Assembly (NCBI GenBank): GCA_044892525.1
Contig: CM097886.1
Span: forward strand, 122,388,001-122,452,000
Source of the DNA: Schmidtea polychroa
Lineage: Eukaryota
Length of the DNA stretch: 64,000 bases
Direction: 5' to 3'
The notes beneath the pieces are model-generated. The model made no database searches. It was given only the letters and a program-made list of their open reading frames with translations, and was not told the DNA's origin. The position numbers and the translations under genes are program-made. This document shows positions 12,418 through 38,664 of the stretch, piece after piece. Position 1 is the first letter of the stretch. Every line of letters begins with the position of its first letter.

Positions 12418-13245
12418 TTATTTTTTAAATTTGTAATTGTGATAATTCTCCCATTTTTTGATCTCCTTTTCGAGGTTCTTGATATTTTCGTCATACATCT
12501 TTCTCTCGTTTTCCAATTTCTTGTTCTTACCGGCTAGCACTATATTCCTTTGTTCTAGTGCCCCCTTATAGCCGTTATTGTCTCTTTCAAGATCTGCCAC
12601 CTTGTTTACGAGTTCGACGATTCTACCTGACTGTTGTAGAATCATCTCTTCCATGGCGGTATTCTCCTGTTCCTTTATAGACAGTTTCATGGCCAGATGC
12701 CTTTCAAATTCCATGGCCTTGGTCTGCCAGGTTTGACTTCTAGCTGCTACTTTCCGGAGCCTTCTTAGCTCTTCTTTCTGATCCAGGTTTTCTTCCCATT
12801 TCCCTTGATTACTCTCGTGTTCCAATCTCTGCGGTAATTCTCTCATCTCTTTTTGGATTTCTCGATGTTGTTTTTTCCACTTTCTGGCTTCTGCTAGTAG
12901 TTGGCGGGTCTTTCTTTCCTCCTTTTGTTTTTCTATTTCCCGCTTCTTATTCTCATCCGTTAGTCTTTTTCTTGACTCTTGTACCAGCTGCTTCAGGTAA
13001 TGCCCGTGCGCCTCTTGCCTGGTATTTTCTAATGCCGACCATTTGGCGGCTCTTTTGCAGGCCTCGGCCTCCGCCCGTAAATTCTGTACTAACCACTGGA
13101 ACTGGTGGTTTTCCCATTCTCTCGCCTCTTCGAGGTAATTTCGTGTTTGATTTGATAATTGTGCCATCACTTTGGCCCATCTTTCTCTATGTATTCTACT
13201 GATGTTTATTTCGTTATTTGGGGCTTCCGTTTGATCTTGAGTCAT
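12418..13245 (-). CDS. Coiled-coil protein, C-terminally truncated by the duplication junction
   Basis: 275-aa E/K/R-rich ORF. Its last residues (YHNYKFKK*) come from the flank at 12418-12445. Confidence 0.65.
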   Translation of the reverse strand: MTQDQTEAPNNEINISRIHRERWAKVMAQLSNQTRNYLEEAREWENHQFQWLVQNLRAEAEACKRAAKWSALENTRQEAHGHYLKQLVQESRKRLTDENKKREIEKQKEERKTRQLLAEARKWKKQHREIQKEMRELPQRLEHESNQGKWEENLDQKEELRRLRKVAARSQTWQTKAMEFERHLAMKLSIKEQENTAMEEMILQQSGRIVELVNKVADLERDNNGYKGALEQRNIVLAGKNKKLENERKMYDENIKNLEKEIKKWENYHNYKFKK

Positions 13246-13463
13246 CTTTGTCTAAATAACGATATCATTAACTCAACGTTGTACGCTTATATCTGGTTTA
13301 TTATTTATTTATTTTTACAATTCGTTATAGGAGTTGTTTTAGAAGTTTTACGCTTAAGTTTACCTTTAGTAGATTTGGGGGATTTTTCTACACTACTATA
13401 TAATGTTTTACGGGGTATATATGCCGATATTTACAATTAGTATATACAAAATTATTCGTCTCT

Positions 13464-14852
13464 CTACTCAGTCCTACTCTTCCCGTCTCGCCTCACCGCT
13501 ATTTTTATGTATATAGTGTCGTTTCTCGTCATGTCTTCTACTTTCCGCTGTAGGATGAAATTCGGTGCTCCAGTTGCTGGTCCTTCTTCTTCCAAGGGCC
13601 TTTGGTAACATACGAGGTTTCCCGCTGTATGGAAACTCTGTTCATGTATACTTTGATAGTTCATCATTGCGAGGTCTATTTTTGCTTTGAATGGCCATTC
13701 TATTAACTCGTCGTATAGCCCTTTGCACATCAAGAAAAATACTGAGAAATGCGTTCCGTATGCACTTCCATCCCCATTGGGGTATGCTTTCATTTTCATT
13801 TTATACCCGTATTTCCATGAGTAGAATGCTGGACTTAGTAATGTTGTATCCTTTCCATTTCTCGCTCTCTGCATCTTCTCTTTTACTCCCGTTATTTTCC
13901 ATATGTATGGAGCCGTTGGTATTAATTCGTTGAGGTTTAATTCGCTTACTTTTTGATGTAGTTCTTTCACCATAATGTTGCTAGTTTCCACTAGATCTGT
14001 CTGTATCTTTGTACTTGTTCTCGCCTCTTCAAATGCTTCCTTTTCTTCCAATAGTTCTTTTACCAACGCTTTTAGCGAGACTATTTCTCTTTCTAAGTTT
14101 TCGGTTTTTCTTTCGTTTTCTTGTAATACCGTTGACCATATTTCCGCGTGTGTTGATACGTTTTCTGCTAGATGTTGGGGTAATTCCCCTCGGTGTAATT
14201 GTTTCTGACATCCCCATTTTCCTAGCACACACGTTATCTTTTTCCTTTCACATTCTCTGAGATGTTGAGCGAGTCTTATTACTCCAGATTTATCGCATTT
14301 ATTGGGACATTCTCCTCTGAACCCTGCGCACACTTTCTCCTCTTGTATGTTGTGATGTTGACTGATTAATTTTTTCCAGGTGTCGGTTTCTCCGCAATAC
14401 TCACATTTCTCCAGTCTTTCTTCGCATCGACTTTGATGTTCTGCTTCTTCATTGACTTTAATCTCTTCTTGGCAACGTTTGCATTGACTGATTTTATATT
14501 CACATTGCTCCATATGTTGCCTCACTTCCCATATCCCTCCTCGCCAATTGCATGGGGTGTTTTTACATCCTAAATTTGAATTTAACATATCTTTCACGGC
14601 TGCTTTATCTTCGTTTGTATCTCCCAAACTTGTTATCATGGTTTCTTTACATACTGGGCACCATTGTGGTCCCTTCTTTATTATCACCTCTACACATTCT
14701 CTGCACATTCTGCATCCACATCTGGTTTGGTGAGGTTCTCTTAATAAGCTCTTGCATATTCCACACGTTACATGGTTGTGTATTCGAATTGTGGTGGACT
14801 TTCTGACTTGTTCAACAATTTCTTTGAATTCTTCTCGTTGTCGCTTATCCAT
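13464..14852 (-). CDS. Intronless TRAF-family protein (RING, TRAF zinc fingers, coiled coil, MATH/TRAF-C)
   Basis: RING CGIC..LLREP.QT.CGC..CREC...CPVC; zinc fingers C.N..C.W.G....HMEQC, CEYC, CPNKC, HLREC, GC; MATH YIWKI...SPAFYS..YGYKM...YPNGDG...GTHFSVFF...KG.YD..I.WPF. Paralogue not assignable by eye. Confidence 0.93.
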   Translation of the reverse strand: MDKRQREEFKEIVEQVRKSTTIRIHNHVTCGICKSLLREPHQTRCGCRMCRECVEVIIKKGPQWCPVCKETMITSLGDTNEDKAAVKDMLNSNLGCKNTPCNWRGGIWEVRQHMEQCEYKISQCKRCQEEIKVNEEAEHQSRCEERLEKCEYCGETDTWKKLISQHHNIQEEKVCAGFRGECPNKCDKSGVIRLAQHLRECERKKITCVLGKWGCQKQLHRGELPQHLAENVSTHAEIWSTVLQENERKTENLEREIVSLKALVKELLEEKEAFEEARTSTKIQTDLVETSNIMVKELHQKVSELNLNELIPTAPYIWKITGVKEKMQRARNGKDTTLLSPAFYSWKYGYKMKMKAYPNGDGSAYGTHFSVFFLMCKGLYDELIEWPFKAKIDLAMMNYQSIHEQSFHTAGNLVCYQRPLEEEGPATGAPNFILQRKVEDMTRNDTIYIKIAVRRDGKSRTE

Positions 14853-14941
14853 TTCTATAATTATATATATACATATATTCGTTACTGGTACAGTTTCGTA
14901 TTTTTATTTACAGTTATTTACATTGCTATTTTAGGTTATAT

Positions 14942-15325
14942 TTATTGGCTGGAAGAGTCGGCCTCTTGTCCGCCCTCTTCCCTACTGGTTAACCATTCTG
15001 ACCAGTCTTCTATCTCCTCTCGCTCCATCTCTTCCGCGATTCTTATTAACTCCTCTTCTTGCACCTGGCTGTATCGTGATATTCGGTCTATCTCTCGCTG
15101 CATTTGTTCTATTTTTATTCGTTGGTCTTCGATTATTCTTACATAACTGAAGCCTTTATTTAAACTTTCGACTAAGCTTCTTTGTACAGCGAGTCCTTGT
15201 ACCTGTAAATTCGAAATCACTTGAGTTAACATTGCACATTGTTGTTTCCACATCTCCTCGGTTGTCGTACTGTGATTTACTTCCTCGCCTATTCGCTCCA
15301 TTCTTAATTTATATATACTTTTCAA
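14942..15325 (-). CDS. Hypothetical coiled-coil protein (probable ATG start at ~15301)
   Basis: Intact, co-oriented ORF between AT-rich spacers; E/Q/R heptad-like composition; no recognisable domain. Confidence 0.55.
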   Translation of the reverse strand: MKSIYKLRMERIGEEVNHSTTTEEMWKQQCAMLTQVISNLQVQGLAVQRSLVESLNKGFSYVRIIEDQRIKIEQMQREIDRISRYSQVQEEELIRIAEEMEREEIEDWSEWLTSREEGGQEADSSSQ

Positions 15326-15469
15326 CCCTTATCCAATTTTATTTTTATATTATTTATCCCCATCGTTATATAATATTGATACCGCGGTTATATAAAAATA
15401 TATCATACTGTTATATAAATAAATATTATCTACTTACTTTTTACAATCTATATACAGTCATAATCCTTT

Positions 15470-18400
15470 CTATATACGTGAGCTTGGAGGGCGCTGAGCA
15501 TTCCAGGCCTCCACCCACTGTTCCTGCTTGATATTACTTGGTCGTTTTACATGATGTTGAAAATTTCTTATTCTGGCCATTTCTAGTTCTCCGCGATGCC
15601 GTCTATCTTTGATTATTTTTATTGTCCCCCCCGTTATGATTAAAAAGGCCCCTGTTATTATTATGCCGCTGATCCACATCATCTGTTTTACGCTTATAAT
15701 TTCCGCTTTTTCCTTGTTCATTATTGTTGATATTGCCTCTGTGCTTTTTAGATTACCGTCTTTGCCATTTCCTTTTATCATTCCTCGTATTCTTGCTATT
15801 TCCTCGTTCATACCTTCCTTTGCCATTTTTTGTATTTTCTCCATCTCTTCCTCTGATACATAATTGTCCTGATATTTCTCACCGGTTTTCTTGCGTTTTC
15901 CTTGCTCATCTTTTTCGTCATTGATTTTTCTTTTCTTCCCTCTTTTCCCAGGGTATCGTCGACATTCTCTTTCTGGACCGTTTCTCAGGATACAGACCGT
16001 ATATTCCTTTGGTGGTTGTTGTTGCGTTACGTATTGTAGACAATTTTCTCCTGGTCCTAGCCTTGAAATACACACTTTGTGCTCTTTTCTTGGTTGAAGC
16101 TGTGTTATCACTATTTCACCTCCTTTACTTAGGTGTACCTCTTTCCATTTGACTTTTGTTATTTTCTTCCCGTTTCGATGTTGGTATGCTTCTTGTATTC
16201 CCACTTCCGTTATTGGTTCTGCATCTTCATTTTTTAACACTAGTCTCTGATAAGCTCTAGACATACATCTTCCTAATATACACCTTTCTTTTAAATCCCA
16301 TTCCTCTTTTAGATCCCATTGCTGCTCTTGTACTTGTTTTTTCTTTTCTTGTTTTAGTTCTTCCTCTTTGTTGTCCTTATTTTCCGTTTCTTTGGCTTCT
16401 TTTATCGTTCTCATTCCTCCCTGGGCTGTTATCATTTCCACCATTGTTAATACGAGTATCATTATCATCATATTTGTCTCCATTTCTTTGTTGGTAAAAA
16501 GTAGACATACCCTCTGTTTTCCACTATTCGTCTTTTCTTCTTGCTTTATTCGGTTTCTCGGGTTATTTTCCTCTTTTTTCCTACTCGCGTCGTTATTTTC
16601 TTGATTATTCTCCTCTGATTTCTCTTTCTCTTTATTCCCGTTTCGACCTTTTTCATTATTATCGTCGTCTTTATCGTCTTTATCTTTATCGCCTTTATCT
16701 CCCTCGCTGTCGTTTGAAATGTCGTCCTCGACATTTATATCATTCAACAATCTGCGGTATGCCGTTAGCACTCTGTTTCTTGCTAATTTTGCTTCGAATT
16801 CGAACTCCTTTCTGCCTGTTGCTACATGTCTCTTTCTATTCCATTCTTTCACTAATTCTCTTAATTGTATCCGACGATGTTTTCCGATTCGCTTTTGTTC
16901 GTTTTGATTTTGCGTGAATTTGAGATCTTCCCTGTTTAATACGATCATTATGATTTTTGGAGTTCCTCCTTTTGTTAGTGTATTTTTAACCATAGCATTT
17001 ACTCCGTTTTCGTAAAACTCATTTATATTTATTGCATATTTATTGCTTTGCGGTATTTTCCATGTTAGCAATAATTTCATGGCTTCTAAGCTCATCCGTA
17101 TCGTGTTCCATTGGAACTGCGACGTGTTTTTACAGATATTTTCTACCTCAGTTCTTGTAGCATTTTTACAAATGAATCTAATCATTTCCAAGTTTGGTTG
17201 TATTGTTGCCCAATCCATGGCAGAATTTCCTTCGTTTGATATTTCGTCAAGTCTCGAACCTGATTGATGTAGTATATGTAAGGTTTTCGGGTGTATCTTT
17301 GTTATTGCTGCATACATCATTGCTGTTTCTCCTTGTTCATTTTTTGCATTAGATTCTTCTCCCAAGTCTCTAAGAATTCTTATGATGGTTATTGCTCTGT
17401 TTTCTTTTGCTGCTAAAATGGCTTGTTGTAATGGTGTTCTTGAATCTTTTGTTGGTAAGGTGAATGCTAGTGGTATAAATGCTTTTATTTTTCCTATGTC
17501 TAGATTTGTGGTCTGGTCTCTCGCGTAGGTGTGTACTGTTTTTGTTATTTTTGCTAGTATCGCTTCATCGGATAGATCTTGCATTTCTTCAAAGAATACT
17601 TCTTTAGCCTTACGTATTACTATCTCTTGGTCGGAGTTTATTATCTTTGGTTTACTTGTTGTTGCTATATCGCTTATTATTTGATCGACTCGTTTCTCAG
17701 ACTTTCTTACTGTTATTTTCTTGATTTTAATCTTTTTCTTGTTCGAACTGTTAATGCGTTCCTCTGCCGTTAGAACTTGAATAATACTTAGGTAAGTTTC
17801 TCGAATGTTATTCATATTTTCCATCATATATAATACACTCACGGTTTCCCAAAATTTTACTTGTACTTTATCGGTAAATTGAGATATAGCTTTTTCGAAG
17901 TCGGTAATTCGTTTTCTGATTAGTTGTTCGTCTTTGTGATTTGAGAACTTTATGCCACGTTGTAGTAGTTGATTTGGAATTTCGAATAGGTGATGTCCTC
18001 TCATCGCTTCTCTCATCAAGGTGTTTTCTCCTTTGGTAAATGTTTCGTTTATATCTACCATATAATCGTTTTTGATCGGGTTCCTCCATGCAATTAGTAA
18101 TCCAGCAATTGTTATTAATTTCTCTTTGATTGCAGTTAATAGCCCGTCATACATGTTTCCTATCTCCCTATTATCCTCGTATGATAATAGATCTACTAAG
18201 ATTATGAAGGCTTTCGTACTTTTCCCTTCGATTGCATGATGTAGTGCATTTTTCTGGTTGTGATCCTGTGTGGTTATCTTTGACCCAGTTTCAAGTAATG
18301 CGATAATAATATCTTTAGCTTTATCCCGATTGGCTGCTATCATTAGTGGAGTGTAACCTTGGTTGTTTTCTTGATCCGTCGAAATGTTACAGTCGCGAAA

Positions 18401-19555
18401 TGCTTCGATCGTTTCCAGTATTTGTTCATTATTCCCGACCTTTAAAAGTTTGTGCAGCGGTGTATCTCCATAATGGTCTGTGATCGTAAATAATACAGGC
18501 CATTGACTTTTTACTACCCTGAGTAATGGGTGTGTTCTTTCTCGGTTTGCATAGTTTTCGATCATGGTTAGCAGACCTCCCAATATCTCAAAATCTAATC
18601 GGTCTTTTGCCCATCCGGGCATTTTAGCTTTCACTTCCTTTATGATTTTCTCGGCTTCTGATGGTCGTAACCCCAATCGGTTACCTGTTGGTTCGTTTAT
18701 CTGCTGTAACATATTTATTCTATATGTTTGTGATCTTGTTGTTAATGTTCGCCCTTCCGGCTGGCTGGTGGCTGTTTTCGGTATTGGCTTACATCGTGCC
18801 ACATTTACATATATTGGCCTCGTGAAGGGGTTGTTTACCAATCGTACTCTCACATTGGTTTCTCCGATGAATAGAATCTCATACGGACCTTTGCCGTTTC
18901 GTTGTAATTTTTTGGTGGTTCCTGGAATTAATTCCGGTGTTTCGATCATCACCCAATCACCGGTTTGAAATGTATGTTGTTTAACGTTTTTCTTTCTATC
19001 ATGCAGATCTTTGTAACTTTCCTGATAAAACTTTATATTTAATCCCGCAGTTTCCCAGATTTCTTGCATTCTTTCCTTGAACTTGGTTACATAATCGTCT
19101 ATTTCCATGTATTGTGATATTGGTGGCTGATATTCTAAATCCATTGGCATATTGCATTCTCTGCCGTACATCAACTTAAACGGACTCATCTTTGTGGACG
19201 CGTGAATCGACATTCTGTAAGCCATTAAACATAATTTTATATACTCGTCCCAGTCGCGTTGATGACGATCGACGTAATTTGATAACATTTGAATCAGTGT
19301 TCCATTGAATCTTTCTGTCATACCATTAGTTTGTGGATGGTACGGTGATGTTCTTAATTTTGCGATCTTGAAGTAGTTGGTGACTTCGCTCATTATTTCA
19401 CTCATGAAGTTTGTTCCTTGATCAGTTAATATCTGTTTTGGTGTTCCATATCGACAGCATATCTCCTCTACTAGTATTTTTGCGATTGTTCTTGCTTTCT
19501 GATCTGCCATAGCGAATGCTTCGGGGAATTTTGTCAAATAATCTGTGATTACCAA
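15470..19555 (-). CDS. Integrase catalytic core and GPY/F module fused to two ankyrin-repeat modules, a charged low-complexity region and a C-terminal membrane segment (1361 aa)
   Basis: TDQGTNF, YHPQTNGMTERFN, SPFKLMYGR, KGPYEI. Ankyrin motifs GDTPLH, GYTPLMIAA, KNALHHAI, RTPLQQAI, GETAMMYAA, GNSAMDWA. Hydrophobic MMIMILVLTMV and WISGIIITGAFLIITGG. Confidence 0.9.
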   Translation of the reverse strand: MVITDYLTKFPEAFAMADQKARTIAKILVEEICCRYGTPKQILTDQGTNFMSEIMSEVTNYFKIAKLRTSPYHPQTNGMTERFNGTLIQMLSNYVDRHQRDWDEYIKLCLMAYRMSIHASTKMSPFKLMYGRECNMPMDLEYQPPISQYMEIDDYVTKFKERMQEIWETAGLNIKFYQESYKDLHDRKKNVKQHTFQTGDWVMIETPELIPGTTKKLQRNGKGPYEILFIGETNVRVRLVNNPFTRPIYVNVARCKPIPKTATSQPEGRTLTTRSQTYRINMLQQINEPTGNRLGLRPSEAEKIIKEVKAKMPGWAKDRLDFEILGGLLTMIENYANRERTHPLLRVVKSQWPVLFTITDHYGDTPLHKLLKVGNNEQILETIEAFRDCNISTDQENNQGYTPLMIAANRDKAKDIIIALLETGSKITTQDHNQKNALHHAIEGKSTKAFIILVDLLSYEDNREIGNMYDGLLTAIKEKLITIAGLLIAWRNPIKNDYMVDINETFTKGENTLMREAMRGHHLFEIPNQLLQRGIKFSNHKDEQLIRKRITDFEKAISQFTDKVQVKFWETVSVLYMMENMNNIRETYLSIIQVLTAEERINSSNKKKIKIKKITVRKSEKRVDQIISDIATTSKPKIINSDQEIVIRKAKEVFFEEMQDLSDEAILAKITKTVHTYARDQTTNLDIGKIKAFIPLAFTLPTKDSRTPLQQAILAAKENRAITIIRILRDLGEESNAKNEQGETAMMYAAITKIHPKTLHILHQSGSRLDEISNEGNSAMDWATIQPNLEMIRFICKNATRTEVENICKNTSQFQWNTIRMSLEAMKLLLTWKIPQSNKYAININEFYENGVNAMVKNTLTKGGTPKIIMIVLNREDLKFTQNQNEQKRIGKHRRIQLRELVKEWNRKRHVATGRKEFEFEAKLARNRVLTAYRRLLNDINVEDDISNDSEGDKGDKDKDDKDDDNNEKGRNGNKEKEKSEENNQENNDASRKKEENNPRNRIKQEEKTNSGKQRVCLLFTNKEMETNMMIMILVLTMVEMITAQGGMRTIKEAKETENKDNKEEELKQEKKKQVQEQQWDLKEEWDLKERCILGRCMSRAYQRLVLKNEDAEPITEVGIQEAYQHRNGKKITKVKWKEVHLSKGGEIVITQLQPRKEHKVCISRLGPGENCLQYVTQQQPPKEYTVCILRNGPERECRRYPGKRGKKRKINDEKDEQGKRKKTGEKYQDNYVSEEEMEKIQKMAKEGMNEEIARIRGMIKGNGKDGNLKSTEAISTIMNKEKAEIISVKQMMWISGIIITGAFLIITGGTIKIIKDRRHRGELEMARIRNFQHHVKRPSNIKQEQWVEAWNAQRPPSSRI

Positions 19556-21956
19556 TATATATATATATATATATATTCCCTCTATCTGATTCTGGTAGTG
19601 GACCGACTACGTCCATTGATATCATAGTCATTGGTTCTGCTGGTACTGGCATTGGTTTTAATGGTGCCTTCCATTTTGTTCCCGTGTTTTTTCTGGTTGC
19701 GCAAGTTATGCAATTTTTCACCCATTCCGTTACATCCTCGGTCAATGTAGGCCAAAAATATTTTTGTTTCATTCGTGCCAACGTCTTTTTAGATGACATA
19801 TGTCCTCCGAGTCTTCCGTCATGGTATTGTGTTAGCAGATCTTTACGTCTATTCTCGGGAATGCACATCAGTCTTTTCTCGCCATCCATTATCAATAACC
19901 AATCTTTCTCTATTATATATCGATGTCGATGTTTATCCATATGCTCTTTCAATTTTTGATCTTTCTCATATACCTCTGCTTTTCCAGTTTTTACATATTC
20001 GATAATTTGTTTCAACTCGTCATCATCTTGCTGGTCTTTTCGTAGTTGGCAAAAATCTAAATCTTCCGCTACCATTAGACATATTCGTTGCATTTCGTGA
20101 TCTACTAAATCTGGAAAGATAAATCTGGACATACAATCCGCATTGGCATTCGCTCTTCCCGCTTTGAATTTTATGAACGGTGAATATTCTTGTAACTGCA
20201 TTGCCCATCGCATCAATCTACTTGAAGCTTCTTTGTGTTGGCCAAGCCATACTAGTGGTTGATGATCTGTTGTGATACATATTTCGTGTCCCCATAACAA
20301 ATATCGAAAATGTTTAATCGCTTGTATAATTGCTAACGCTTCTCTCTCGGTTACGGAATAGTTTTTCTCATGCTTTTTAAACGTTCTGCTGTAGTATCCA
20401 ATCACTCTTTCTTTTCCTTCTTCATCCAGTTGTCCTAATATTGCTCCGGCTGCATATCCACTTGCATCTGTTGCTAATAAGAACGGTTTCTTGAAATCAG
20501 GATGTACTAGTATTGGGGCTTCAATTAATTTATCTCGCAATGTCTCAAATGCTTTTTGTTGTTCTGCACCCCAAATAAATGAAATATCCTTTTTCACTAA
20601 TTCCTGTATTGGTTTCGCAATACCTGCATAGTTTTTGATGAATTTTCGATAATATCCGCATAATCCGAGAAATTCTTGAACTTGAGTGACAGTTTTTGGT
20701 GCTGGACATGTTTTTATTTTTTCTATGTTTCTTGGATCTGGTTCTTTGCCTTTTGCTGACACTATGTGTCCTAAGAACGTAACTTTTTCTTTTGCCCAGT
20801 CACATTTGGATGGTTTAAGTTTCAATTTCCATTGTCGTAATCGAACGAACACGTTTCTGATATCTTCCAAATGTTGTTCGAATGTTGCTGAATATATTAA
20901 TAAATCATCAATATATACCATGCACTGCTTGATCCCGTGCGTGACGAAATTCATACATCTCTGAAATGATGCTGGGGCATTGGTCAGTCCAAATGGCATT
21001 TTCCTGAATTGATACAGGTCTCGACCCAACGTGAAGGCCGTTTTCTCCTTGTCTTCCTCTTTAACTTTGATCTGCCAATATCCGCTTTTTAGATCTAAAG
21101 ACGTAAAATATGCGGCCCCTTGCAGCATAAGTAACATCTCATTGATGTCTGGTAACGGGTATGTGTCTCTTTTTGTTACGGCATTTAGTTTCCGATAATC
21201 GATACAGAATCTCTGGGTACCGTCTTTTTTCTTCACCATGACTACTGGAAATTGCCATGGCGAACAACTTGGTTCGATCACTTGTGCATCTAGCATTTTT
21301 TGTACTTCTGCTTCGGCTATCTCTTTTTGCTTCTCTGCTAGTTTGTATGGACGTAGTGCGATTGGAGTTTCGTCTATTAATGGTATTGCGTGTAATGTAA
21401 CATCGCATGCTCCCAAATCTAAGTCCGAAATAGCGAATATATCTTTATATTCTATCAATAATTGTTGAAGTCTTTCCTTTTCCTTTTCCGTTAGCAATGT
21501 GCTATCGATTGTCCATAATTCGTCAGCTTTCGTTGTTTCATTGGTGATTTTTGGTAATTCGATGTCTATCATGGGTGTCAATCTACCCAATCTTTCATTT
21601 TCATATATGATCTTCTCTTCTTCCTCGAAATTTGTGATGTTAATTGGTATTTCCCCTTCGTCATTAATTGTTATTATTTCTCTTGCTAATGGTAATTCTC
21701 GTCGTTTTTCGAATGATTTGCTTGGCTCAAAAATGGCTTCTCCTTCCATTCCTGCATCCACTTTTATTTGACATATCATCTGGGATTTTGCTGGTACAAT
21801 TATTTTCTCCGGACATCTGATTATTGCGTTCATTTTGCATATTCTACCCATTTTATCTTTTAGGCACATTGTTGTTAGATCTATTACTACTTCTTTGAAC
21901 AATTCCGGCATTAAATCCGTTCCGATTATACATGGTTCACTCAGTTTGGGTATCAC
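19422..21956 (-). CDS. pol: Pol: protease C-terminus, reverse transcriptase, RNase H, integrase N-terminus; goes out of frame at the (AT)11 tract near 19555-19576
   Basis: RFCIDYRKLN, LDLKSGYWQI, MPFGLTNAPASFQ, YIDD, TFLGH; RNase H ATDASG..GAIL.Q, EREALAI, TDHQPL; H..H...CITC; MDVVGPLP. Confidence 0.95.
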   Translation of the reverse strand: MIPKLSEPCIIGTDLMPELFKEVVIDLTTMCLKDKMGRICKMNAIIRCPEKIIVPAKSQMICQIKVDAGMEGEAIFEPSKSFEKRRELPLAREIITINDEGEIPINITNFEEEEKIIYENERLGRLTPMIDIELPKITNETTKADELWTIDSTLLTEKEKERLQQLLIEYKDIFAISDLDLGACDVTLHAIPLIDETPIALRPYKLAEKQKEIAEAEVQKMLDAQVIEPSCSPWQFPVVMVKKKDGTQRFCIDYRKLNAVTKRDTYPLPDINEMLLMLQGAAYFTSLDLKSGYWQIKVKEEDKEKTAFTLGRDLYQFRKMPFGLTNAPASFQRCMNFVTHGIKQCMVYIDDLLIYSATFEQHLEDIRNVFVRLRQWKLKLKPSKCDWAKEKVTFLGHIVSAKGKEPDPRNIEKIKTCPAPKTVTQVQEFLGLCGYYRKFIKNYAGIAKPIQELVKKDISFIWGAEQQKAFETLRDKLIEAPILVHPDFKKPFLLATDASGYAAGAILGQLDEEGKERVIGYYSRTFKKHEKNYSVTEREALAIIQAIKHFRYLLWGHEICITTDHQPLVWLGQHKEASSRLMRWAMQLQEYSPFIKFKAGRANANADCMSRFIFPDLVDHEMQRICLMVAEDLDFCQLRKDQQDDDELKQIIEYVKTGKAEVYEKDQKLKEHMDKHRHRYIIEKDWLLIMDGEKRLMCIPENRRKDLLTQYHDGRLGGHMSSKKTLARMKQKYFWPTLTEDVTEWVKNCITCATRKNTGTKWKAPLKPMPVPAEPMTMISMDVVGPLPESDRGNIYIYIYIGNHRLFDKIPRSIRYGRSESKNNRKNTSRGDMLSIWNTKTDIN

Positions 21957-22498
21957 CGCTAGATACGTTTCAATTTCATTATCTTGATATCGTAACGTAG
22001 TCCACCATCTTCCTACTACGTCTACGGTTTCTTTACTGCATGCAATAATATGGATAGTTGTTTGTTCGATGTCTTTCCAACATTTACTGGGTATTTGGTT
22101 TATTGCTATTGCTGATACATTTGCTCCGGAATTATCATTGCGCTTGTCTCTTTCCCGTTGATTTGGATCATGACTGTTACTGCCGCGCCTCCTGGTGAAC
22201 TCATTACTGCTATTGTTCTGACGTCATCAGCTTGGTCTACGCTTTTCGTTCTTCGGGTCGGCATATAGTTCATACCTGGTTGACTTGGTAACTGTGGATA
22301 CATATTTTGTGTCATGGTCAAAGCTGTTTGTTGTCCAACGATATCTGGTGGTATATAACTTCCGTTGGCTATCCAGGTATTCGTTTTTTCTTTCTCCCAA
22401 AATGGTGCTGTTTCTATTGGCTTTTCATTCGGGTTTCTACTTGGATATGGATATTTGTCATTCCCATTGTCGTCATCATCACTATCGCTGCTGTTTGA
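21957..22498 (-). pseudogene. Linker plus aspartic protease, frameshifted by a 1-nt deletion in the catalytic Asp codon
   Basis: In frame after the env TGA: ...VMIQINGKETSAMI, then atg ata [g]at tcc gga gca aat gta. Restoring one G gives AMIDSGANVSAI and runs into the pol frame (...LAVIPKLSEPCIIGTDLM). Confidence 0.8.
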
Positions 22499-27397: not shown

Positions 27398-27442
27398 ATA
27401 CTTCTTTATTATCGCTTTCTCCTCGCTTGGTATTAAATCTTT

Positions 27443-29368: not shown

Positions 29369-30640
29369 GACTGGTTCTTGTAACTCTATTGTTTCTTTTA
29401 AATTTTCCAGCGGTGTCGCTAAATTATGGACGGATAATTCTTCTGTTGACCCGGTTACGTTGTTTGTTATATCGGATAGGCTTTCTCTGCTTCTAGATCG
29501 ACTAGGGGTGTATCCGAGGTTTTCTTGGTCAAATGTTGGTACTTGATTTGTTCTTTTTGCTCCTTGTGATCTTCCTCTTTGCTGTTTTATGGATCGTCCT
29601 CTTCTGAGCTGTTCTAGTTCGTCTCCTGAAATTAATACGTCTCTTGACTTACTTGAGGATCTGAGATTTAGTTTCTCCGTGATTTCTTCTTACGCCTCCT
29701 TATCGTCTCTTATGGATTTCTCGGCAATTATCGGCTGCTGACTTGAGCGAATTCGGTTTTGTCGGTGTTCCGAGTCCTTGGCAATTGGTTGTTAGCGTTA
29801 TGAGACGTCTTCCGTTCTTGGAATCTTCGGGTTGTGTTACTCCTACTGAGCGGGTTCTGGATTGGTTATTTCTAGTTGGTCGTTAATTTCTTCGAATTCC
29901 TTTGTGCAAGTTCTGGATTGGCTTGATTGACTGGATTGGTTTGGTATCTAAAATGAAAAAATGATCTCGTGTTGCATCTGCTCACACGACTTCATCATTC
30001 TTTCTTCAACATTCAAACACAGACACCGTTTAGGGCCTCTGTTATACTTCCCCTTATTTCCCCATACAATTTCTCGTGGATTATAGTTACCCATCAACCC
30101 ATAGTTTTCGTCGATTTTAAATTATCTATTTAGGGTAGTAATAATTATCTATATGGTCGTATGAATCATCTATAATTATCATTTATAATATCGATAGGTC
30201 GTTGTCAGTTACTGCTTATCACCCCCCCATATTCTCTTAATCCTTTTACGCGATTCCGCTATTTTACTTAATCTTTCGTCTCTGTTCCCCTTTACTCGGT
30301 TCTACTCTGAACCAAAAAAAAATCGGATTCGTTTATCCGGTTTAAACCAAAATTCTGTAGACTTTTGTCTACTTACTTGGGATCCCCTTTAATTAATTAA
30401 TTACCTTCCTTTTTACTCGTCATTTATTCCCACTTATTCTCTACTTTTACTATCTCCTCAATTCATTTTCCTTTTCTGATTCTCCTTTTCTACTAAAAGG
30501 GTTTTACTTTCATCTTCTACGAGCTCGTTTAATCCTTTCTAAATTCGACTTCTCGTATCCCAATTCAATTCGTTTCTAGCTAGCTTAATATTCTATCTCA
30601 TTATCAACTTAAATATTATCCAATCATTTTCTAGGCCTTT

Positions 30641-31070
30641 ACGACTGGCTGGCACTTTTCAACAGCTCAATCTTCTTCCTTCTGACCGGTTGGACTATTC
30701 GACAACTCGATCTTACGACTGGCTGGCACTATTCAACAGCTCAATCTTCTTCCTTCTGACCGGTTGGACTATTCGACAACTCGATCTTACGACTGGCTGG
30801 CACTATTCAACAGCTCAATCTTCTTCCTTCTGACCGGTTGGACTATTCGACAACTCGATCTTACGACTGGCTGGCACTATTCAACAGCTCAATCTTCTTC
30901 CTCTCCAAACTGGCTGGACTTTTCACAGCTCAGTTTTTAATTTTTTTTCCTGACCGGCTGGACTTCTCGACAGCTCGGCCTTAATATCTCCCGACTGGCT
31001 GGACTTTTCACAGCTCAGTTTCAATTTCCCTGGCCGGCGGGACTATTCAACAGCTCAGCCTTAATATCTT
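30641..31070. repeat. Tandem array in the 5' leader: 3.5 copies of a 74-bp unit (a dimer of ~37-bp subunits) plus 4 degenerate subunits
   Basis: acgactggct starts at 30641, 30715, 30789 and 30863. The core GACYGGYTGG(C)ACTWTTC(R)ACARCTC occurs 11 times. Confidence 0.95.
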
Positions 31071-31642
31071 CGACTCTGCATGCTTCTATCTTTTCTTTAC
31101 CTTTATTCTAGACTGTCATCTCTCCTTTTATTTTTACTTTTTATTTGTCGATCTAATCTGTGCCGCTTGAGAATGTTTCCCCTTTCCCCCCTTGCTCAAA
31201 ACGCAAAACGATCGCATTGATCCATTTCTACATTGGTATGGTGATCAGTCATACCGCAGAAACTTTTCAATATTCGCGATGGTACCTCGCCTTACATCTC
31301 TTACTCGGGGTGATCGGTTATCCCTTCCCAACCGGTTTTCGTGTATCGTACCTCCCGAAGGTGGCTCGGTTTATTCCCCCTTTACTCCTATGTTGGGACT
31401 AGCTCCACTTTATTTTATTTGTTCAAATTAAATTTATAGATGCTCTCTCTCTATGGTGAAAATTATCATAAAGTTACTGAATTCACAATAAAATGAACAC
31501 GCAAAACATTCTATTCATTAGTTGGCTTAAATCACATGCAATATACAAATTTACTAGAAAATTGTTGATACATCAATTAAACATAAAGGATTTAGTCAAA
31601 TCGTCAATCAGATCAATTCTTTCACCGAGTGCTGCTCGCGTG

Positions 31643-32122
31643 TTAACTGAAGTAAATCGTGTGCTTCTCCTTTATTGCACATACACATAAAGAACAATGC
31701 GTTAAACTGACGGCGCATTCGTCGCAATGGCTAAGGTGTCCACAAGGTAGCATTAGAATTCTGGCAGGTCGCGTCTTACAAATGTTACAAGTTCTCAAGG
31801 CCGCTGCTTTTTCTATTATCGAGGTTCGTATTCTCTGAGATAGAGTTTTTACTTGTTCGCGTATTCTCACATATTCGAGGTTCAGAGCGGGGTCGTCGAG
31901 TCGTTGCTGCATCCATTGGTAATGGACAGACAAGTCGGTGTCGGTATTTGTTGACCCCAATCTGTCGGTTAGAAAGTTTTGTTTGGATATCAGCGGTGCG
32001 TTGTGGCGTTGTTGCTCTAGGGTTTCTATTTGTTGCAGTTTTTCTCTTAACGTCTTTATGGAATCGTTTTCTATGTCGACGAACCGGCTTAGTCGTTGTA
32101 GATGTTTCCTAGCTTCTGACAT
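31643..32122 (-). CDS. LTR-encoded coiled-coil plus C-terminal IAP-type C3HC4 RING protein (no BIR domain)
   Basis: CNIC......ILMLPCGH..HCDEC...L..CSLC...I....IYFS* follows the IAP/zf-C3HC4_3 RING spacing and terminal aromatic tail. The acceptor-like ttttgtag lies 2 nt before the ATG. Confidence 0.85.
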   Translation of the reverse strand: MSEARKHLQRLSRFVDIENDSIKTLREKLQQIETLEQQRHNAPLISKQNFLTDRLGSTNTDTDLSVHYQWMQQRLDDPALNLEYVRIREQVKTLSQRIRTSIIEKAAALRTCNICKTRPARILMLPCGHLSHCDECAVSLTHCSLCVCAIKEKHTIYFS

Positions 32123-32708
32123 ATCTACAAAAGTATGTTGTCATTACTCGGTCTCACTTATAAAAATAAAAATAATATTATCGTGTTATAATCAATGTTC
32201 GTTTGGCTTTGTTCGCTATTGTTTCTAGTTTATGTATTTTATTCAATCTCTAATAATTCTTTTTTAATTTAATTCATTTAAAATTAAACAAAATTAGTCA
32301 ATTCCCATTTTCTCTTCTCTTCATATTCAATCACATTCATTCAAACTTATTTAGGTTCGTTTTTGTTCATAGCATGTTCTATTTTACGCAAAGACAGTTC
32401 GCATCATCATCTTAATACACTATAATATCAATTCATTTCAGTCCCGATTCCCTTTTTTTATTATAATTAATTAAATTGTTAGTCTAACACATCGTAATAC
32501 AGTAATAGGCAATCAAACAATTCGAAATCACAATCCCGGCTGAGCCCCCAAAAATCATGTTGGCGTATGTGGGGAAAGAGAAAATATGCCCACCTGATCA
32601 TCATACATCCCAAGTACTCTCTTCCGCTCCGATACTTCCCATACATACTCCAAAATGATCAAATACATATTCCCACGTATGAGCCCGTGGGGGTGTTCCA
32701 CGTTGGTG

Positions 32709-32810
32709 CTGCTCACACGGGTTGGAAAAGGTTAGCAGGTGAGCCCCTGCCTTAGGACTACTCCTAACCCTTTCTCGGTTCGGGTTCCATGGTGCCATAG
32801 AAGGTCTTAC
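32709..32810 (-). ncRNA. Conserved ~102-nt structured, intron-like element (GTAAG...CTCAC/CTAAC...CAG) in the LTR
   Basis: Homologues at 9731-9832, 44883-44984, 49984-50086, 56811-56915, 57193-57301 and 62429-62531. The hairpin around the GCTCAC loop shows compensatory changes. Confidence 0.5.
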
Positions 32811-33100
32811 CCGTTTCTTCGCTCCTAATTCAGTCCAACCCTGGTCCAAAGGGACGACATTTGCGCTCGTACTATGTCTCCAAGAGCACCTTTTACTCAA
32901 ATCAACCACAGCAAATCACACATACCATGAAAAAAAAAATCAAAGACTTCAAACAGTTGTATTAAATCGAAACATAAAAATACATTCACCATTAATTAAA
33001 TAAGAACAAAACATCAAAGGTCATGTACAGGATAACGTCAACTTCTCCGAGTTCCTTCATACCGCACAAAGATTGAGACAAATGAGAAAAAAGGAATTCA

Positions 33101-33865
33101 TTACGAAAACACTTCTCCTTCTGCGATCATTTCGTCAATGTCGACGGGCAACCGGCGATCTTCGAGGAATTTGATGCCGTCGGCCGGAACTAACCGAAAT
33201 ACTTCTTTCGTAGGGATAGAATGGGTGATTGTAATTTCCTTGATCGTCGATTTGGCTGCAGATAACGATGCCTCGAGCGCGGCCATGGCGTTTCTGCGCT
33301 TCTGATTTTTCTCTGAGCGCGTCGGTCTCTTACGCTTTCGAGGTGGAAGAGTGGCTCCTGCTGGAGGCCGGGTGAGTGGCGACGCGAGGACTGGAGCCAA
33401 GATAGGGTCCGATGGACCGCCAGCCATAGGCCGATAGCCAGAAAGAACTGGGGCGGGAATTGGTGGCAATTGTAGGCCGTGCCCCTTGCAACTGATGGTT
33501 GATGAGGTTTCAGTGGATTGATGGTGTTCCGGGAACACGTTAGTCCCATCTTGTATTGGGTATTCGCGAACTCGCTTCGCTATCTCGGATTCCGAATATA
33601 CTTTGTGCAGTGCCTCTGATTGGGCTTTTATGGTTAGCCTCTGGCATCTGCTCTCCTCGAGGAGACTGTCACGGCAGTGCTCCAAACGTAGAATTTTTCT
33701 CTTCTCTTCCTTCATTTGTGGCGGGGAGAACCACGTGCCTTCGTAAAGGTCGATTCTTTTCTTTAAAGCCCCGATGTATAGATGAAGCTGCGCGATATCT
33801 GCGTTTTTATCTGCGCAGGAGAAACATGGGCGAAGAGTTTTCTCAGCAGTTGTTGGAGTAGTCAT
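33101..33865 (-). CDS. LTR-encoded hypothetical protein (254 aa; CxxC, coiled coil, Pro-rich linker, basic NLS-like motif)
   Basis: Intact ORF homologous to 8672-9433. Nine of the 22 codons of LHLYIGALKKRIDLYEGTWFSP differ synonymously between copies, with no amino-acid change. Confidence 0.85.
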   Translation of the reverse strand: MTTPTTAEKTLRPCFSCADKNADIAQLHLYIGALKKRIDLYEGTWFSPPQMKEEKRKILRLEHCRDSLLEESRCQRLTIKAQSEALHKVYSESEIAKRVREYPIQDGTNVFPEHHQSTETSSTISCKGHGLQLPPIPAPVLSGYRPMAGGPSDPILAPVLASPLTRPPAGATLPPRKRKRPTRSEKNQKRRNAMAALEASLSAAKSTIKEITITHSIPTKEVFRLVPADGIKFLEDRRLPVDIDEMIAEGEVFS

Positions 33866-36284
33866 CTAAAGAATGAGAAGCCCTTTATTTACATCATTAA
33901 AATCCTTTCTACTATTTGTTTTCTTTTTATCGTGAGCTTTATCCTGCCACATGTGCATACAATCAGGATTGTCCCCCACATCCATACCTTTGACCTCACT
34001 TAACTCATCCAAACCGTAAACCTTCAAATCAACTCATCATATCGTTCGTAAGGAAGAAAAAAATGAGAACCATCACACGTTATTTCTCTACCCATATTGA
34101 TATTGTACCTAGGTTCCTGGGTCGACAGTTATCATCTAATCGCAATCAGTTACTCCTTACCACTAATATATTTTTCCACTTTTATTTATTATGACCCATT
34201 GAAAGTGTGTCTACTCCCTTGCTATTATGGCTTATTGAGTTATGCCTGCTTTAATTTAAAAGAAGTAGTTCCATGCTGTTGATGCATTTTTGCGCTGTGT
34301 TAGGTTAAAACGAATGTGTTAAAAATTATTGTAAGTATTAATTTCCCCCATAAATTATAATTTAATTATTTAAATTTTCGCATTTTATGTTGTCATAACG
34401 ACGCATATTAGTATGTAGTTGTGTACTGGTTTCAGACTCTACCTGATGTGCGCTAATGTGTATTATTTAGTTTTACTCAATTATCGCTGTCCTCTCTTAG
34501 CAAATTCTAGACATTGTGTCGGTTAGTGTACTTGATCTCGTCGCTTATTTATGCATGCCTACGGACACATGCTACTATGACGCAATGATGACGTCGACTC
34601 ACTCACGTCCCATGTATTAGTGGATTTATCTGTGTGTGGGTTTGGGTCTGCTTATCTCAGTTATAACATTATTAGCAGATGGGCTAGACGAACGGAAGAT
34701 AAGGAGTCAGACTTATAGAAATAACGATGGTTATGATTTCAAGATGGCCTAAATCTGTTATCGGGTAGCAAATGGATTTAATTTCTATCTCTCTCGTGAA
34801 TGTTGACTATTCTCAAAAACCTAATCGTTTCATCGACTTGGCGCAAATCGTTCCACAATCGAACCGCTGGAATATTTTATCTACGCTACTTGCCTCTCTG
34901 CAATAGTCGTTTCTCGATCAGATGGAAAATTTATTGATAATTTGTTCGGAATGGTCGATGAAAATTTCCTTTAGGACTGTAGTAAGTGCTTATGATTAAT
35001 TAGAACTTTGCTGTTTACTTTCCTGTCAGGACGAATCCTTATCGATGACAGTAGCTAATCGAAGGTTGATAACTAAGTCTCCTACTCGTCAAATAACATA
35101 TCACCGCGATGGGTTGAATCGCTAACGTTCTCTTAATTTATCAATTCTTGGAAATATAGAATGCTCCAGATTTTTATCATTCATCAAGAAAACGAAAATG
35201 GACGTTAGAATTATCAGTGAGGTTCGAGAATTTCATTACCCTCAAGGATAGTCGGTGTTCATATTCTGACGAAAAGAAGTCACCTAGCTCTAAATTGAAT
35301 ATGGCCGAACTCAAACTCGGATTAAATATCGAAAAATGTCGTCAATCTCCTAGAATTTTCAGTCAGCACGTTGTCGGCATCGAAACAGTATCGCTCAGAA
35401 GTTTCCTCAATCGAAAGTTTGCGACGGCTAATTCTACAGATAGCACTCGATGAAAGGATCATTGACTCGATTCGTTTTCTCTCACAGGGTTTCCTCACCC
35501 CTCACAACCCACCCAAGGACAGTACGCATTTCTGCCCACTGCCCTTGGACCGTCGTGAAGGACAACTCGACCCGACTTATCTCAAATCCTCCTCCAATAA
35601 ATGTGCAATTAATAAATTCATATATGATCAAACAAATATGGGAATAATGAAATTAAAAGAAAAATCAAATAAATAAATGTTTACCTGGCGGCCACGCCAG
35701 CCGGATTCCGGGTATGATGACTCTTGCTAACGTAGGTTTTTACATTCATTTAGCAATCATTGTAATACTAATATCCATGTAGATACTTGGCTGGTTCGGT
35801 CAGTGCAATTTCTGAGTATTCATATTCATAAGCTCTCTCTGAAAATGCATACGTAATTTAGCCGCATCATACCCGAGCTCCAGAGGACGTCGTCGCCAGC
35901 ATCATAGAGAGAAAGCAACATCTTTTGGTTTTAAATATAAATTTTATTGAAACATAAAACGTCTTTTGATATTAAATTCATAATAAACATTAAAAATATC
36001 ATACTAAAATTCAAAACATAATTTACCAAAATTCTCCGAAGGTGTTAGGATTGAAATCAAAGTCTTGTAAATTTTTCCTTAGTTAGCCTGGTTCTTCTCA
36101 ACTGGATTCGATCTCGACTATTATCTGCCTCTAAGTAATATCTGTTATGTCCAAGTATGAATATTGTTCGTAAGTCTGTGCTCGTGAGTGGTTCCTAGCT
36201 TAGTCCTGTAGAGTTTCGGGTTAGAATGATAATTTTAAATAAATTTTACCTGTAGAGTTTCGGGTTAGAATGATACTCTACAGA

Positions 36285-36330
36285 GTTTTGTTGCTCTTTA
36301 TATATATTTTTCCGTCCAATCAGGACACAC
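36285..36330 (-). promoter_or_regulatory. Putative LTR promoter (ATTGG/CCAAT box, then TATA), ~480 bp inside the 5' end of LTR A
   Basis: gtgtcctgattggacgg...tatatataaagag. The same layout occurs in copy B (6310-6340), C (54661-54696), D (58315-58352) and E (59264-59288). Confidence 0.6.
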
Positions 36331-38664
36331 CTTGCTTGTAATTTTGTTATTTATTATTATTTTATGTTTTTTCTTATCGTAGTATATTATATTTTAATGA
36401 CCCTACCTATTTCTATTATTGTTTTATTTATTTTCCTATTTTTTATTATTTTTCTCCTATTTTTCTGTGGTTTTATTGCTATTTTATTGTAACTTCATTT
36501 TTTGTTTTAATTAACCTTATGGATGATTTTATTTTTATTTTGTTTTCCTTTAGTTTTCGTTTGTTTTTCTTAAATTTTGTGCCATTTTATTTCTCTTTTA
36601 CTGTTGTGCTCATTGGGTGCCTTCCCTTTTGTCTTATTTCCCCTTTACAGGTTTTGTTATTTTATTTAGTTATTCTTGTTTCTTTATGGATGTTTAATTT
36701 GTTTCTTCCTATGTTTCTCGTAATTTTTATATGTTTTTATTTTATTTACTCTATCTCTTCCTGGGTTCGTTTTTCCAACACCTTCAGAGCTTGGCCCAAC
36801 AAAAAGTAGTTTGTAGGTGTAGTCTTTTGGGTGTTAAAATTACCAGAATTTGTAACAAAAATACTAAAAGCAGACAAACAAAGGTAAATTAAATAAGAAA
36901 CATTAGAAAAATGAGTACAGAAAGGAGAAAACAATTGTGCGGTAGCGAGGGAAATGCGAATAGTGAAAATGCTGACCGGAAGACTGTAAAAGTAAAAGAT
37001 TTTACCCACACGTAACCATCAGTAAATAACAAAATAAAGACTCTGTCAATTTGAAATTATTATATGTGTAGTCCTTTAGTCATATTGCTGGGTTAAAAAC
37101 CAAGGACAGTTTTATATCCTGTAACCTTTCTTGTTCCCACCGAAAGGCCACTAAGATGACCACACAACATGGAAAAAGCAATAAGAACCAATCGGAACCA
37201 ATTTTTCTACCCCTAGATTTTTATTTCTATTAGATCTACCATAATTTAGTGTAAGCACATCGGAAATTTTATGTTAGAAGATGAGTGAACATTAAAAATC
37301 TTAAGGCTAAAATGCTACATGATAGTGAAAGAAAAATATAGGGTAAACATACAAATACAGAACAGGAGTGATTCGAGAACTTGAAGATGATTTCAGAACA
37401 GTTTTTAACCTATTAACAATTTGATGTGATCCATTAACTTATTTATTTGTGATACAAGATTGTAATTATATTTATTTATTGGTTCTTGGTGATATTATAA
37501 TAAAGTAAACCCTCACACGCAAAAATGGAAAAATATCTGGATATATGTCAGAGATAAGGCTGACATAGAGAAAAGGAAAATGGAAAACTGAATCTGTCGC
37601 CAGTGCCGCAAATGAAACAGACTATATAAAACAGAACAGTTGACCGAGAAATCAGAACAAAAAGTAAAACAAAAACAGAACGAAATCAGAGACGAAAAGA
37701 GTAAAAAAGGAGACACAAAAACAGAGTGAAACGAGAAGTGACGAGAATAGTTTGTAAAATTGAACATAAAGTGGAAGTGGAGAAAATAAATTGTGTGGTC
37801 AAAGCAAATAGAACAATCGATCAACGTATCCTGTAATTAAATAGTTGATGGATAGTGATTATTGTTGTGATTACAGAAAGGGCTATTCTTCACGTAGTGT
37901 CGAAATAAGCTCTATGTGATAAATTGGTTTATAATTAATTGGTTGTAATTGAAATTTGTACAATCCCGTGTGGATATTAATAAAGCCTATCGTGTTCGAG
38001 AGTGTTGAATTGTGAATTAATAAACACGCTTTGGAGTCAAATATTATCACCAACCCAATAACCCAACAGTATTATTTATTTGTTATTATTATATTTTATT
38101 AATTTTAAGACAGATTGGAGTGCATGTTATTATTTTTAGACATATTTGTTCAAACAGGTTAGCAATAAGTGCATTTATTGGAAGATTGTTTATTTTATTT
38201 TTTTGAAAATTTTAATTGAACCATTAAAAATTTAATTTTGATTTTTACAATAATTTTCATGTTGATATTGAAGATTGTAAAATGTATTTATATAAACTAT
38301 TCATATTTATAGTATTTATATTTAATCATTTGAATGTTGTTGGTGAATTATGAACTCAATGCGCGTCTGTGTGCGCGTTGTATTGTGTGATGGGTTTGTG
38401 TGCGCACACAGACGCGAGCAATGTCATTTTTTGGGTTGGGTTGTTGGTGTGTCGCGTCTGTGTGCGCTTTTCTTTTCTTTGTTTTAGGCTGTGTGCGCAC
38501 ACAGACGCGAGCAAGAAGTATGGAAATATTTATTAATTAGTTTGGTTGTAATTTTTTTCTAATTTTAGAGTTAGAATTTTATCGATTCTTGAATGTGAAT
38601 GGATTTAGAGAGTTGTTAATGGTATCGATTTCGGTTTTGGTTTTCTTATGATTTTTCGGATAAA

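Follow-up and report, generated by a model that had tools for sequence, protein, structure and literature searches.

The gene set of the planarian Burro elements was reportedly described over the years 2007-2019, and one of their cargo proteins is said to have been functionally tested in 2026. Burro1/GYPSM1, from Schmidtea mediterranea, is a gypsy-like LTR retrotransposon of giant size (Jurka 2007 and Grohme 2018, via PMC6431247), and section 7 of that review (PMC6431247) catalogues for it MATH/TRAF, BCL2-like, Ubi2/SUMO-like, ankyrin and Smc-like coiled-coil modules, positions Env, in frame, after gag and before pol, and already proposes that the cargo is a 'tinkerer' with apoptosis and ubiquitination; a dUTPase-like domain in the published Burro was called by HHpred. 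Burro-2, -3 and -4 (Grohme 2018) are named in PMC6431247 and PMC8532177, and a Burro-like element of Dugesia tigrina has, in the description of PMC6431247, an ORF1 that encodes two CCHC knuckles and is 5,140 aa long. As related at second hand in PMC13465017, the BIR-RING protein of Burro1 (B-IAP) is anti-apoptotic and protects stem cells from caspase-mediated death.

We analysed a stretch of 64,000 nt of Schmidtea polychroa DNA (the window) and found in it one copy of a Ty3/Gypsy LTR element that is 30 kb long and present in high copy number. This copy was inserted recently and is now broken; its Gag, PR, RT, RNase H, integrase, Env and cargo are all encoded on the minus strand (Table 1). The PR-RT-RH-IN order, the RT-RH region closest to Ty3 (E 3e-87), the two TG...CA LTRs, the primer site and the target-site duplication are those of a Ty3/Gypsy LTR retrotransposon. 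The first-pass annotation, made from the sequence alone, had proposed one co-oriented unit with Gag, RT, RH, IN, Env, TRAF, an IAP-type RING and ankyrin repeats, and domain matches bear this out for RT (RVT_1, Pfam E 2e-37), RNase H (Pfam E 7e-40), both the zinc finger and the core of the integrase, Env (Monjiviricetes_fusion, Pfam E 4e-72), TRAF (Pfam E 4e-25; TRAF3/TRAF2, E 5e-29), the ankyrin repeats (E 1e-17) and the RING, for which 10 of 10 PDB matches were IAP RINGs (E 1e-8), as well as for Gag. The protease that it had also listed was detected, with a weak match in this copy (RVP, E 0.03). No outside homologs of Env were found among longer proteins or in the PDB, blanks that weigh little as evidence.

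Table 1. Features of the element and its surroundings in the window.
Feature	Position	Strand	Remarks
Second LTR, in-window part	1..1650	-	
Duplicate, 10.8 kb, of the 5' flank of the element itself (36802-47597)	1651..12445	.	99.9% identical
Coiled-coil-like accessory ORF	12446..13251	-	truncated by the cut at 12446
TRAF, full-length	13464..14903	-	intronless; RING, zinc-finger region, coiled coil, MATH
128-aa accessory ORF	14942..15328	-	conserved; no family assigned
Integrase core, ankyrin repeats (16907-18496), tail	15470..19606	-	tail holds two hydrophobic segments, 16415-16471 and 15611-15667
PR (weak match), RT with YIDD, RNase H, integrase Zn finger	19422..22498	-	frame change near 22130
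Env-like fusion glycoprotein	22733..24502	-	lies between gag and pol; hydrophobic segment 22775-22831
Predicted Bcl-2-fold domain within the polyprotein	24653..25132	-	purifying selection
Three putative ubiquitin-like domains	25688..27397	-	27113-27397, 26588-26857, 25688-25912; weak support
Gag (CCHC knuckles)	27443..29689	-	opens the broken polyprotein; Retrotrans_gag E 1e-10
Tandem repeats in leader, 74-bp and 40-bp	30639..31069	.	
Accessory ORF: helical N-terminus, C-terminal IAP-type C3HC4 RING	31643..32140	-	separate intronless gene; no BIR
Primer-binding site	32533..32550	-	complementary to a tRNA-Pro gene (3' end) from the same genome
5' LTR, 4,244 bp	32558..36801	-	TG...CA ends; identical ends in other copies
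ORF within LTR, about 240-254 aa	33101..33865	-	no Pfam match; conserved between subfamilies

The boundaries of the element had to be redrawn. An LTR of 5.4 kb had been proposed; the LTR measures 4,244 bp (36801-32558), and the RING gene lies in the internal region, beyond the primer-binding site. A 3' LTR, which had been left hypothetical, does exist, although not with the 5.4 kb assumed: from position 1650 a second LTR reaches across the left end of the window to 2,594 bases outside it, with a TTTT target duplication after it. This 4-bp duplication was confirmed by an empty-site allele (run X5), and the studied insertion is polymorphic. LTRs of 15 kb were considered and rejected, since the 15,041-bp direct repeat combines 10.8 kb of flanking sequence with one LTR, there is no TG...CA at the outer end of this repeat, and the LTRs of other copies measure 4.1-4.2 kb; the 12445/12446 junction of the 10.8-kb duplicate was not found in public runs. 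The element is cut at 12446, its internal 3' end, about 2 kb in other copies, is missing, and its reading frame is broken, the polyprotein-length span in the window being 4,740 codons.

Ten copies were selected by RT for a survey of cargo order. The RING, the Bcl-2-like domain, Env and the ankyrin repeats were present in all ten, in unchanged order, and the TRAF MATH domain in eight; among the TRAF matches listed, one lay 6.0-7.6 kb from RT for 68 of the 80 best RT matches. In seven of the ten copies, LTRs at both ends and a 4-bp target duplication were found; these seven measured 30.0-30.6 kb, and their LTR pairs were 98.8-100% identical. The 150 scored RT matches were without exception at 98% or more, and frames of 4,724-4,817 codons recurred among them. 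In four same-family comparisons, pairwise dN/dS stayed below 0.35 for every cargo module with estimable dS and was 0.00-0.02 for the Bcl-2-like domain; Env gave 0.02-0.04. Judged from these ratios, the cargo is under purifying selection, which within the polyprotein may reflect a need for folding. The studied copy is rearranged and broken, as one would expect if its cargo genes were local insertions or passengers of this copy alone, an explanation that we regard as extremely improbable in view of the unchanged order of most modules in all ten copies, the purifying selection and the homologous modules in a sister (Burro1-like) family. The picture of a giant, Env-bearing Ty3/Gypsy element with cargo conserved across its family has therefore held.

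We place the element in the planarian Burro group with high confidence, by its gene set. As in Burro1/GYPSM1, the family combines a size of about 30 kb, multi-kb LTRs and high copy number with a single polyprotein of ~4,800 aa (broken in the studied copy), in which Gag, a BCL2-like segment and an in-frame Env between gag and pol precede PR-RT-RH-IN, and it shares the ankyrin repeats, TRAF/MATH and the Smc-like coiled coil; counterparts of the Ubi2/SUMO-like segments are putative here. The same genome contains a Burro1-like, BIR-bearing family that fits the Burro1/GYPSM1 description and has an identical tRNA-Pro primer site, and the comparison of sequences indicates that the studied family is its sister, with identities of 91-92% in RT, 59% in Env, 46% in Gag and only 26-44% in the cargo, the TRAF and RING genes standing at 26-41%. 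The Burro1-like family differs in its longer LTRs (5.1 kb or more versus 4.1-4.2 kb), in a MATH domain inside the polyprotein and in a BIR-RING gene after TRAF, both of which the studied family lacks. Indeed, MATH inside ORF1, which marks Burro1/GYPSM1 proper, was present in 4 of 4 copies of the BIR-bearing family and absent from the 64,000-nt window, and neither a BIR motif nor a tblastn match to the BIR (B-IAP) gene was found in the window or the ten copies, the BIR gene being present in another family of the same genome. Between PR and RT, no Pfam match to a dUTPase-like domain was obtained at E 0.5.

Two subfamilies occur in the genome, 98% identical in RT, 70% in TRAF and 41% in the RING, and both are probably among Burro-2, -3 and -4, going by description. 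For these elements the same motif set plus BCL2-like is reported, as in the studied family, whereas the review PMC6431247 implies a BIR that the studied family does not have, again as far as descriptions can be compared. The studied family is thus probably one of Burro-2 to -4, and the subfamily may already be named and described in Grohme 2018 and Lee 2026. The Dugesia tigrina element, as presented in PMC6431247, is similar in having an ORF1 without MATH and TRAF as a separate accessory ORF, which lies upstream there but downstream of the polyprotein here. The suggested novelty of the architecture has largely fallen away: the gene set is already known and is catalogued for planarian Burro/GYPSM1 in section 7 of PMC6431247. 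Added here are evidence from the fold and an estimate of selection in favour of the Bcl-2-like domain, an abundant Burro sister family that lacks BIR, and the polymorphism of the studied insertion.

The Bcl-2-like domain of the first-pass annotation gives a weak sequence match (Pfam E 0.02), yet its predicted fold matches the Bcl-2 family. For this model, in which confidence is intermediate (pLDDT 66; Foldseek E about 0.01), all Foldseek rows listed as far as rank 50 and the first 36 rows of VIA-align were Bcl-2-family or viral Bcl-2-like folds, with 7-17% identity to the structural matches; the best Z was 12.6 against 5.6 or less for unrelated rows, 13 being advised for helical bundles. The modelled fold matches A179L, BHRF1, KsBcl-2 and M11L of large DNA viruses, among others, with cellular Bcl-2 proteins scoring equally well. 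The Bcl-2, IAP and ankyrin proteins of such viruses offer an analogy of working only, as the carrier here is an LTR retroelement, and since the matches also include poxviral Bcl-2 folds with roles in immune signalling, the fold alone shows no function. No segment reached the hydropathy cut-off for a membrane anchor right after the domain in any of three families, and the outside-homolog search with the Bcl-2 profile gave two short repetitive matches, which count as weak evidence. The ubiquitin-like domains also claimed earlier fared less well. A three-repeat profile matched ubiquitin-like chains weakly (best single-stretch E 2.5e-6), plain ubiquitin matched that profile weakly (E 0.02-0.07), a single-domain profile was negative, and the fold model (pLDDT 51) had no meaningful structural match; segments homologous to these putative domains are present in the Burro1-like family.

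Taken together, we consider it quite probable that the locus holds a broken, recent Burro-group copy whose conserved Bcl-2-fold, TRAF and RING cargo likely keeps expressing host cells alive. As to the pro-survival role of this cargo in itself, we lean towards it. The LTR would drive a full-length RNA, the element's protease would cut the polyprotein into domains, and Env, going by its sequence, would permit budding or spread from cell to cell; BH3-type death proteins would be the ligands of the Bcl-2 fold, TRAF and RING would take part in stress signalling, either as ubiquitin ligases or as adaptors, and the cargo would keep the expressing cells alive until new copies are made. The ubiquitin-like, Bcl-2-fold and ankyrin domains lie within the Gag-Env-Pol polyprotein, the Bcl-2 similarity is just 7-17% identity, the RING has no BIR for caspase binding and the ankyrins are generic, which would also suit a cargo that serves the assembly, trafficking and turnover of the element (ubiquitin-dependent budding, scaffolding, polyprotein processing) and not host cell death. 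We hold this to be rather unlikely, because the TRAF retains its full host-like architecture and the BIR-RING of the sister family is described in PMC13465017 as guarding stem cells against caspase-mediated death.

The NF-kB label of the first-pass annotation found no support here, as neither IkB nor p105 was among the best 60 of 165 PDB matches to the ankyrin domain, and planarians reportedly have seven highly divergent RHD genes with no clear NF-kB homolog (PMC13563047); the absence of a Rel domain in our genome search is taken as a false negative in light of these seven genes. A counter-immunity kit against NF-kB/TNF, with ankyrins that mimic IkB and a TRAF that blocks receptor signalling, would be consistent with TRAF2/3 being closest to the element's TRAF among solved structures, with the induction of planarian TRAFs in immunity via TBK1 (PMC13563047) and with the ankyrins of a planarian nidovirus, which are close to host RHD-ANK proteins. 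It appears improbable given these ankyrin matches and the divergence of the planarian RHD genes, the best NF-kB candidate of which had no effect on the response tested (PMC13563047).

Against the pro-survival role stands the fact that the BIR-RING, the sole protein reported to be anti-apoptotic, is missing from the studied family, which has no BIR. This lineage is young and abundant without a BIR-RING, yet its Bcl-2-fold domain is under near-absolute constraint, and we tentatively propose that the lineages of Burro diverged in their survival kits, the BIR-less one having a second anti-death route or free-riding on Burro1. Such a second route would be, if the modelled fold is a guide, a functional, retroelement-encoded Bcl-2; in either case the BIR-less lineage would be a natural control for the model of host-transposon mutualism. 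With the BIR-less family, the polymorphic insertion and the Bcl-2 data in hand, which cargo protects becomes a testable question.

TRAF genes are expanded in planarians (PMC6109357), and the notion that this expansion consists of mere Burro copies was unsupported: among 20 further MATH loci, none had Burro modules in the 3.5 kb of sequence taken. In a MATH tree with 34 rows no donor of the element's TRAF emerged, and the three Burro MATH groups formed no single supported clade in it. Outside homologs of the TRAF amounted to four distant matches and a search in Atlas gave nothing above 0.78, both weak as evidence. As a separate observation, many of the 150 scored MATH matches were of Burro type.

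Between 36801 and 12446 the minus strand holds a single co-oriented element, and Pfam and PDB matches bear out the first-pass annotation of a unit encoding Gag, RT, RNase H, integrase, Env, a TRAF, an IAP-type RING and ankyrin repeats. Ty3 is the closest solved structure to the RT-RNase H, the MATH domain of the TRAF matches TRAF2/3 and its RING and zinc-finger part TRAF5/6, and the lone RING has ten PDB matches, every one an IAP RING. The element is real and well supported, and it is already known as a kind: PMC6431247 describes Burro/GYPSM1 of Schmidtea mediterranea as over 30 kb long, with a 4,873-aa polyprotein, Env lying in frame after gag and before pol, and MATH_TRAF_C, BIR, ankyrin, Smc, BCL2-like and Ubi2/SUMO-like domains, and suggests interference with apoptosis and ubiquitination. 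With the same gene set, Env position and functional idea in print, the element type cannot be called novel. After the ankyrins, the polyprotein end (15470-16500) carries two hydrophobic segments, the first signal-like, on either side of a hydrophilic stretch; this tail, 83-92% identical over 10 copies, resembles a small type-I membrane protein in sequence and belongs to no assigned family.

Features of the element and its surroundings (window positions)
Feature	Position	Strand	Basis or remark
5' LTR	36801 to 32558	-	primer site next to it
Lone RING	31643-32140	-	Pfam
Gag with CCHC knuckles	27443-29689	-	Pfam
Monjiviricetes-type fusion glycoprotein (Env)	in 22499-27442 frame	-	Pfam, E 4e-72
RT, RNase H, integrase zinc finger	19422-22223	-	Pfam
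Integrase core, ankyrin repeats	15470-19606	-	Pfam
RING-MATH protein (TRAF)	13464-14903	-	Pfam
Second LTR	begins 1650, finishes 2,594 bases beyond left edge of window
Decayed Gypsy-like unit, 8.5 kb, short terminal repeats	38276-46928; duplicate 3125-11776	+

Two further domain calls fared differently. The Bcl-2-like domain is weak by sequence (Pfam E 0.02), and a structure model was built from five natural copies (pLDDT 66). Among the Foldseek matches listed, only Bcl-2-family chains were found (E about 0.01, TM 0.54-0.65), and the best 36 rows of a wide structure search were Bcl-2-family or viral Bcl-2-like folds, the first with Z 12.6 and an rmsd of 3.0 over 139 residues, against Z of at most 5.6 for unrelated rows. 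On this modelling the Bcl-2 call is accepted as a predicted fold, an acceptance that covers fold and not function. The ubiquitin-like call depends on a profile built from the three repeats within the polyprotein, and neither a single-domain profile nor a fold test supported it.

In the 781-Mb genome, which has four large contigs, at least 150 RT matches were found, the 150 scored being 98-100% identical, with recurrent open frames of 4,724-4,817 codons. Ten RT matches absent from the TRAF match list were picked by hand and 40 kb around each was fetched. The RING, three ubiquitin-like segments, Bcl-2-like domain, Env and both ankyrin blocks were present in all ten, Gag and the TRAF RING each in nine and the TRAF MATH in eight (one partial), in identical order, so that the cargo belongs to the family. 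A listed TRAF match lies 6.0-7.6 kb away for 68 of the best 80 RT matches, and a TRAF was also found in four of five fetched copies from RT matches with none listed. Both LTRs (4.1-4.2 kb, pair identity 98.8-100%) and a 4-bp duplication delimit seven of the ten copies, at 30.0-30.6 kb; one of the others has a partial LTR pair and two have none. Two subfamilies are 98% identical in RT, 70% in TRAF and 41% in RING. Pairwise Nei-Gojobori dN/dS against four same-family copies, simple values and not a codon-model test, came to 0.00-0.02 (Bcl-2-like domain), 0.02-0.04 (Env), 0.03-0.24 (ankyrins), 0.10-0.34 (TRAF) and 0.18-0.19 (RING); where dS was saturated, as in several comparisons, there is no ratio. 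The cargo has been maintained as protein across the element's replication cycles. Pairs of near-identical matches about 26.4 kb apart also occur in the assembly, a spacing that suggests tandem elements with a common LTR.

The 5.4-kb LTR first proposed is overlong. As the LTR ends at 32558, the RING gene is internal and the ORF at 33101-33865 lies within the LTR, hence in two copies per element; this ORF gave no Pfam match and has pN far below pS, its identity being 72% inside the subfamily but 36% with the other one. The adjoining primer site matches a tRNA-Pro gene of the same genome, where tRNA-Pro(CGG) and tRNA-Arg(CCT) genes alternate in a tandem array that repeats about every 440 bp (L081 and L082, contig C515). 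TTTT stands at both outer ends of the LTR pair. Public run X5 holds the empty allele, the 5' flank passing directly into the 3' flank with a single TTTT, and in runs X1, X2 and X4, from one study, the flank reaches 27 letters into the LTR; the window copy is therefore a single recent insertion, polymorphic.

This copy is broken. In-frame stops interrupt its 4,740-codon polyprotein span where the Gag and Env frames end, and the frame also changes near 22130 and near 19570. Internal 3' sequence of about 2 kb, including two more ORFs present in other copies, is missing, and a duplicate of the flank on the element's 5' side, 10.8 kb long, lies there instead; the two copies of the full 15,041-bp repeat differ by 9 substitutions and 2 indels. 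Among the 32 of 475 pieces listed, no contig crossed junction 12445/12446 in any of four runs, and in three a contig ending there ran on into the other copy's flank, in contigs from which rare forms are dropped. The duplicate reflects a rearrangement private to this genome or else an error of assembly, and because of it the near-identical LTR pair gives no date for the window copy. In other copies and in a second giant family carrying a BIR-RING gene, the two ORFs (about 180-250 aa; loci L016, L029, L040 and L078) precede the 3' LTR and have no convincing Pfam match. The duplicated decayed unit contains RT pieces, a proteasome-subunit-like ORF (38620-39210; PF00227, E 7e-22) and, in opposite orientation, a diverged Burro-family LTR (about 41100-45050, 67-87% identity).

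From this anatomy and established Ty3/Gypsy biology, reverse transcription would be primed by tRNA-Pro and followed by integration with a 4-bp duplication, and the element's own protease would presumably cut the polyprotein. In cells that express the element, the cargo would most likely damp down signals for death and stress, by analogy with Burro1, whose RING-BIR protein is reported to shield stem cells from caspase-mediated death (Lee et al. 2026, as related in PMC13465017), and with the Bcl-2 fold. Action on NF-kB, also in the first-pass annotation, is the weaker reading: the ankyrins of a planarian nidovirus are close to host RHD-ANK proteins (PMC6211748), but those here are generic, with no IkB or p105 among the best 60 of 165 PDB matches, and planarian RHD genes are described in PMC13563047 as divergent with no clear NF-kB homolog.

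A BIR search of the genome gave at least 150 scored matches, and the four fetched belong to the second giant family, which shares the primer site, has a MATH domain within the polyprotein and carries the BIR-RING gene after TRAF, and fits Burro1 as described. It is 91-92% identical to the window element in RT, 59% in Env, 46% in Gag and 26-44% in cargo. Motif scan and tblastn found no BIR in the window or its 10 relatives, where the BIR protein matches through its RING part alone, so that the protective protein reported for Burro1 has no counterpart in this family. The BIR and MATH differences, together with the shared identity, place the window family, as judged by sequence, as a sister of Burro1. 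By description it is probably Burro-2, -3 or -4, although the wording in PMC6431247 implies a BIR for these, making a BIR-less family a poor fit. Other papers show BURRO1 RNA and piRNA control and name BURRO4 (PMC8532177), and mention Burro as giant elements along with an enrichment of Gypsy at the breakpoints of rearrangements (PMC11410931). The remaining value of the finding is that a BIR-less sister lineage offers a natural comparison for the mutualism model. Many TRAF-like loci of the genome are not of Burro type (L083-L102), several being intronless with frames of 454-476 codons, and contig C2 holds a large cluster of such loci.
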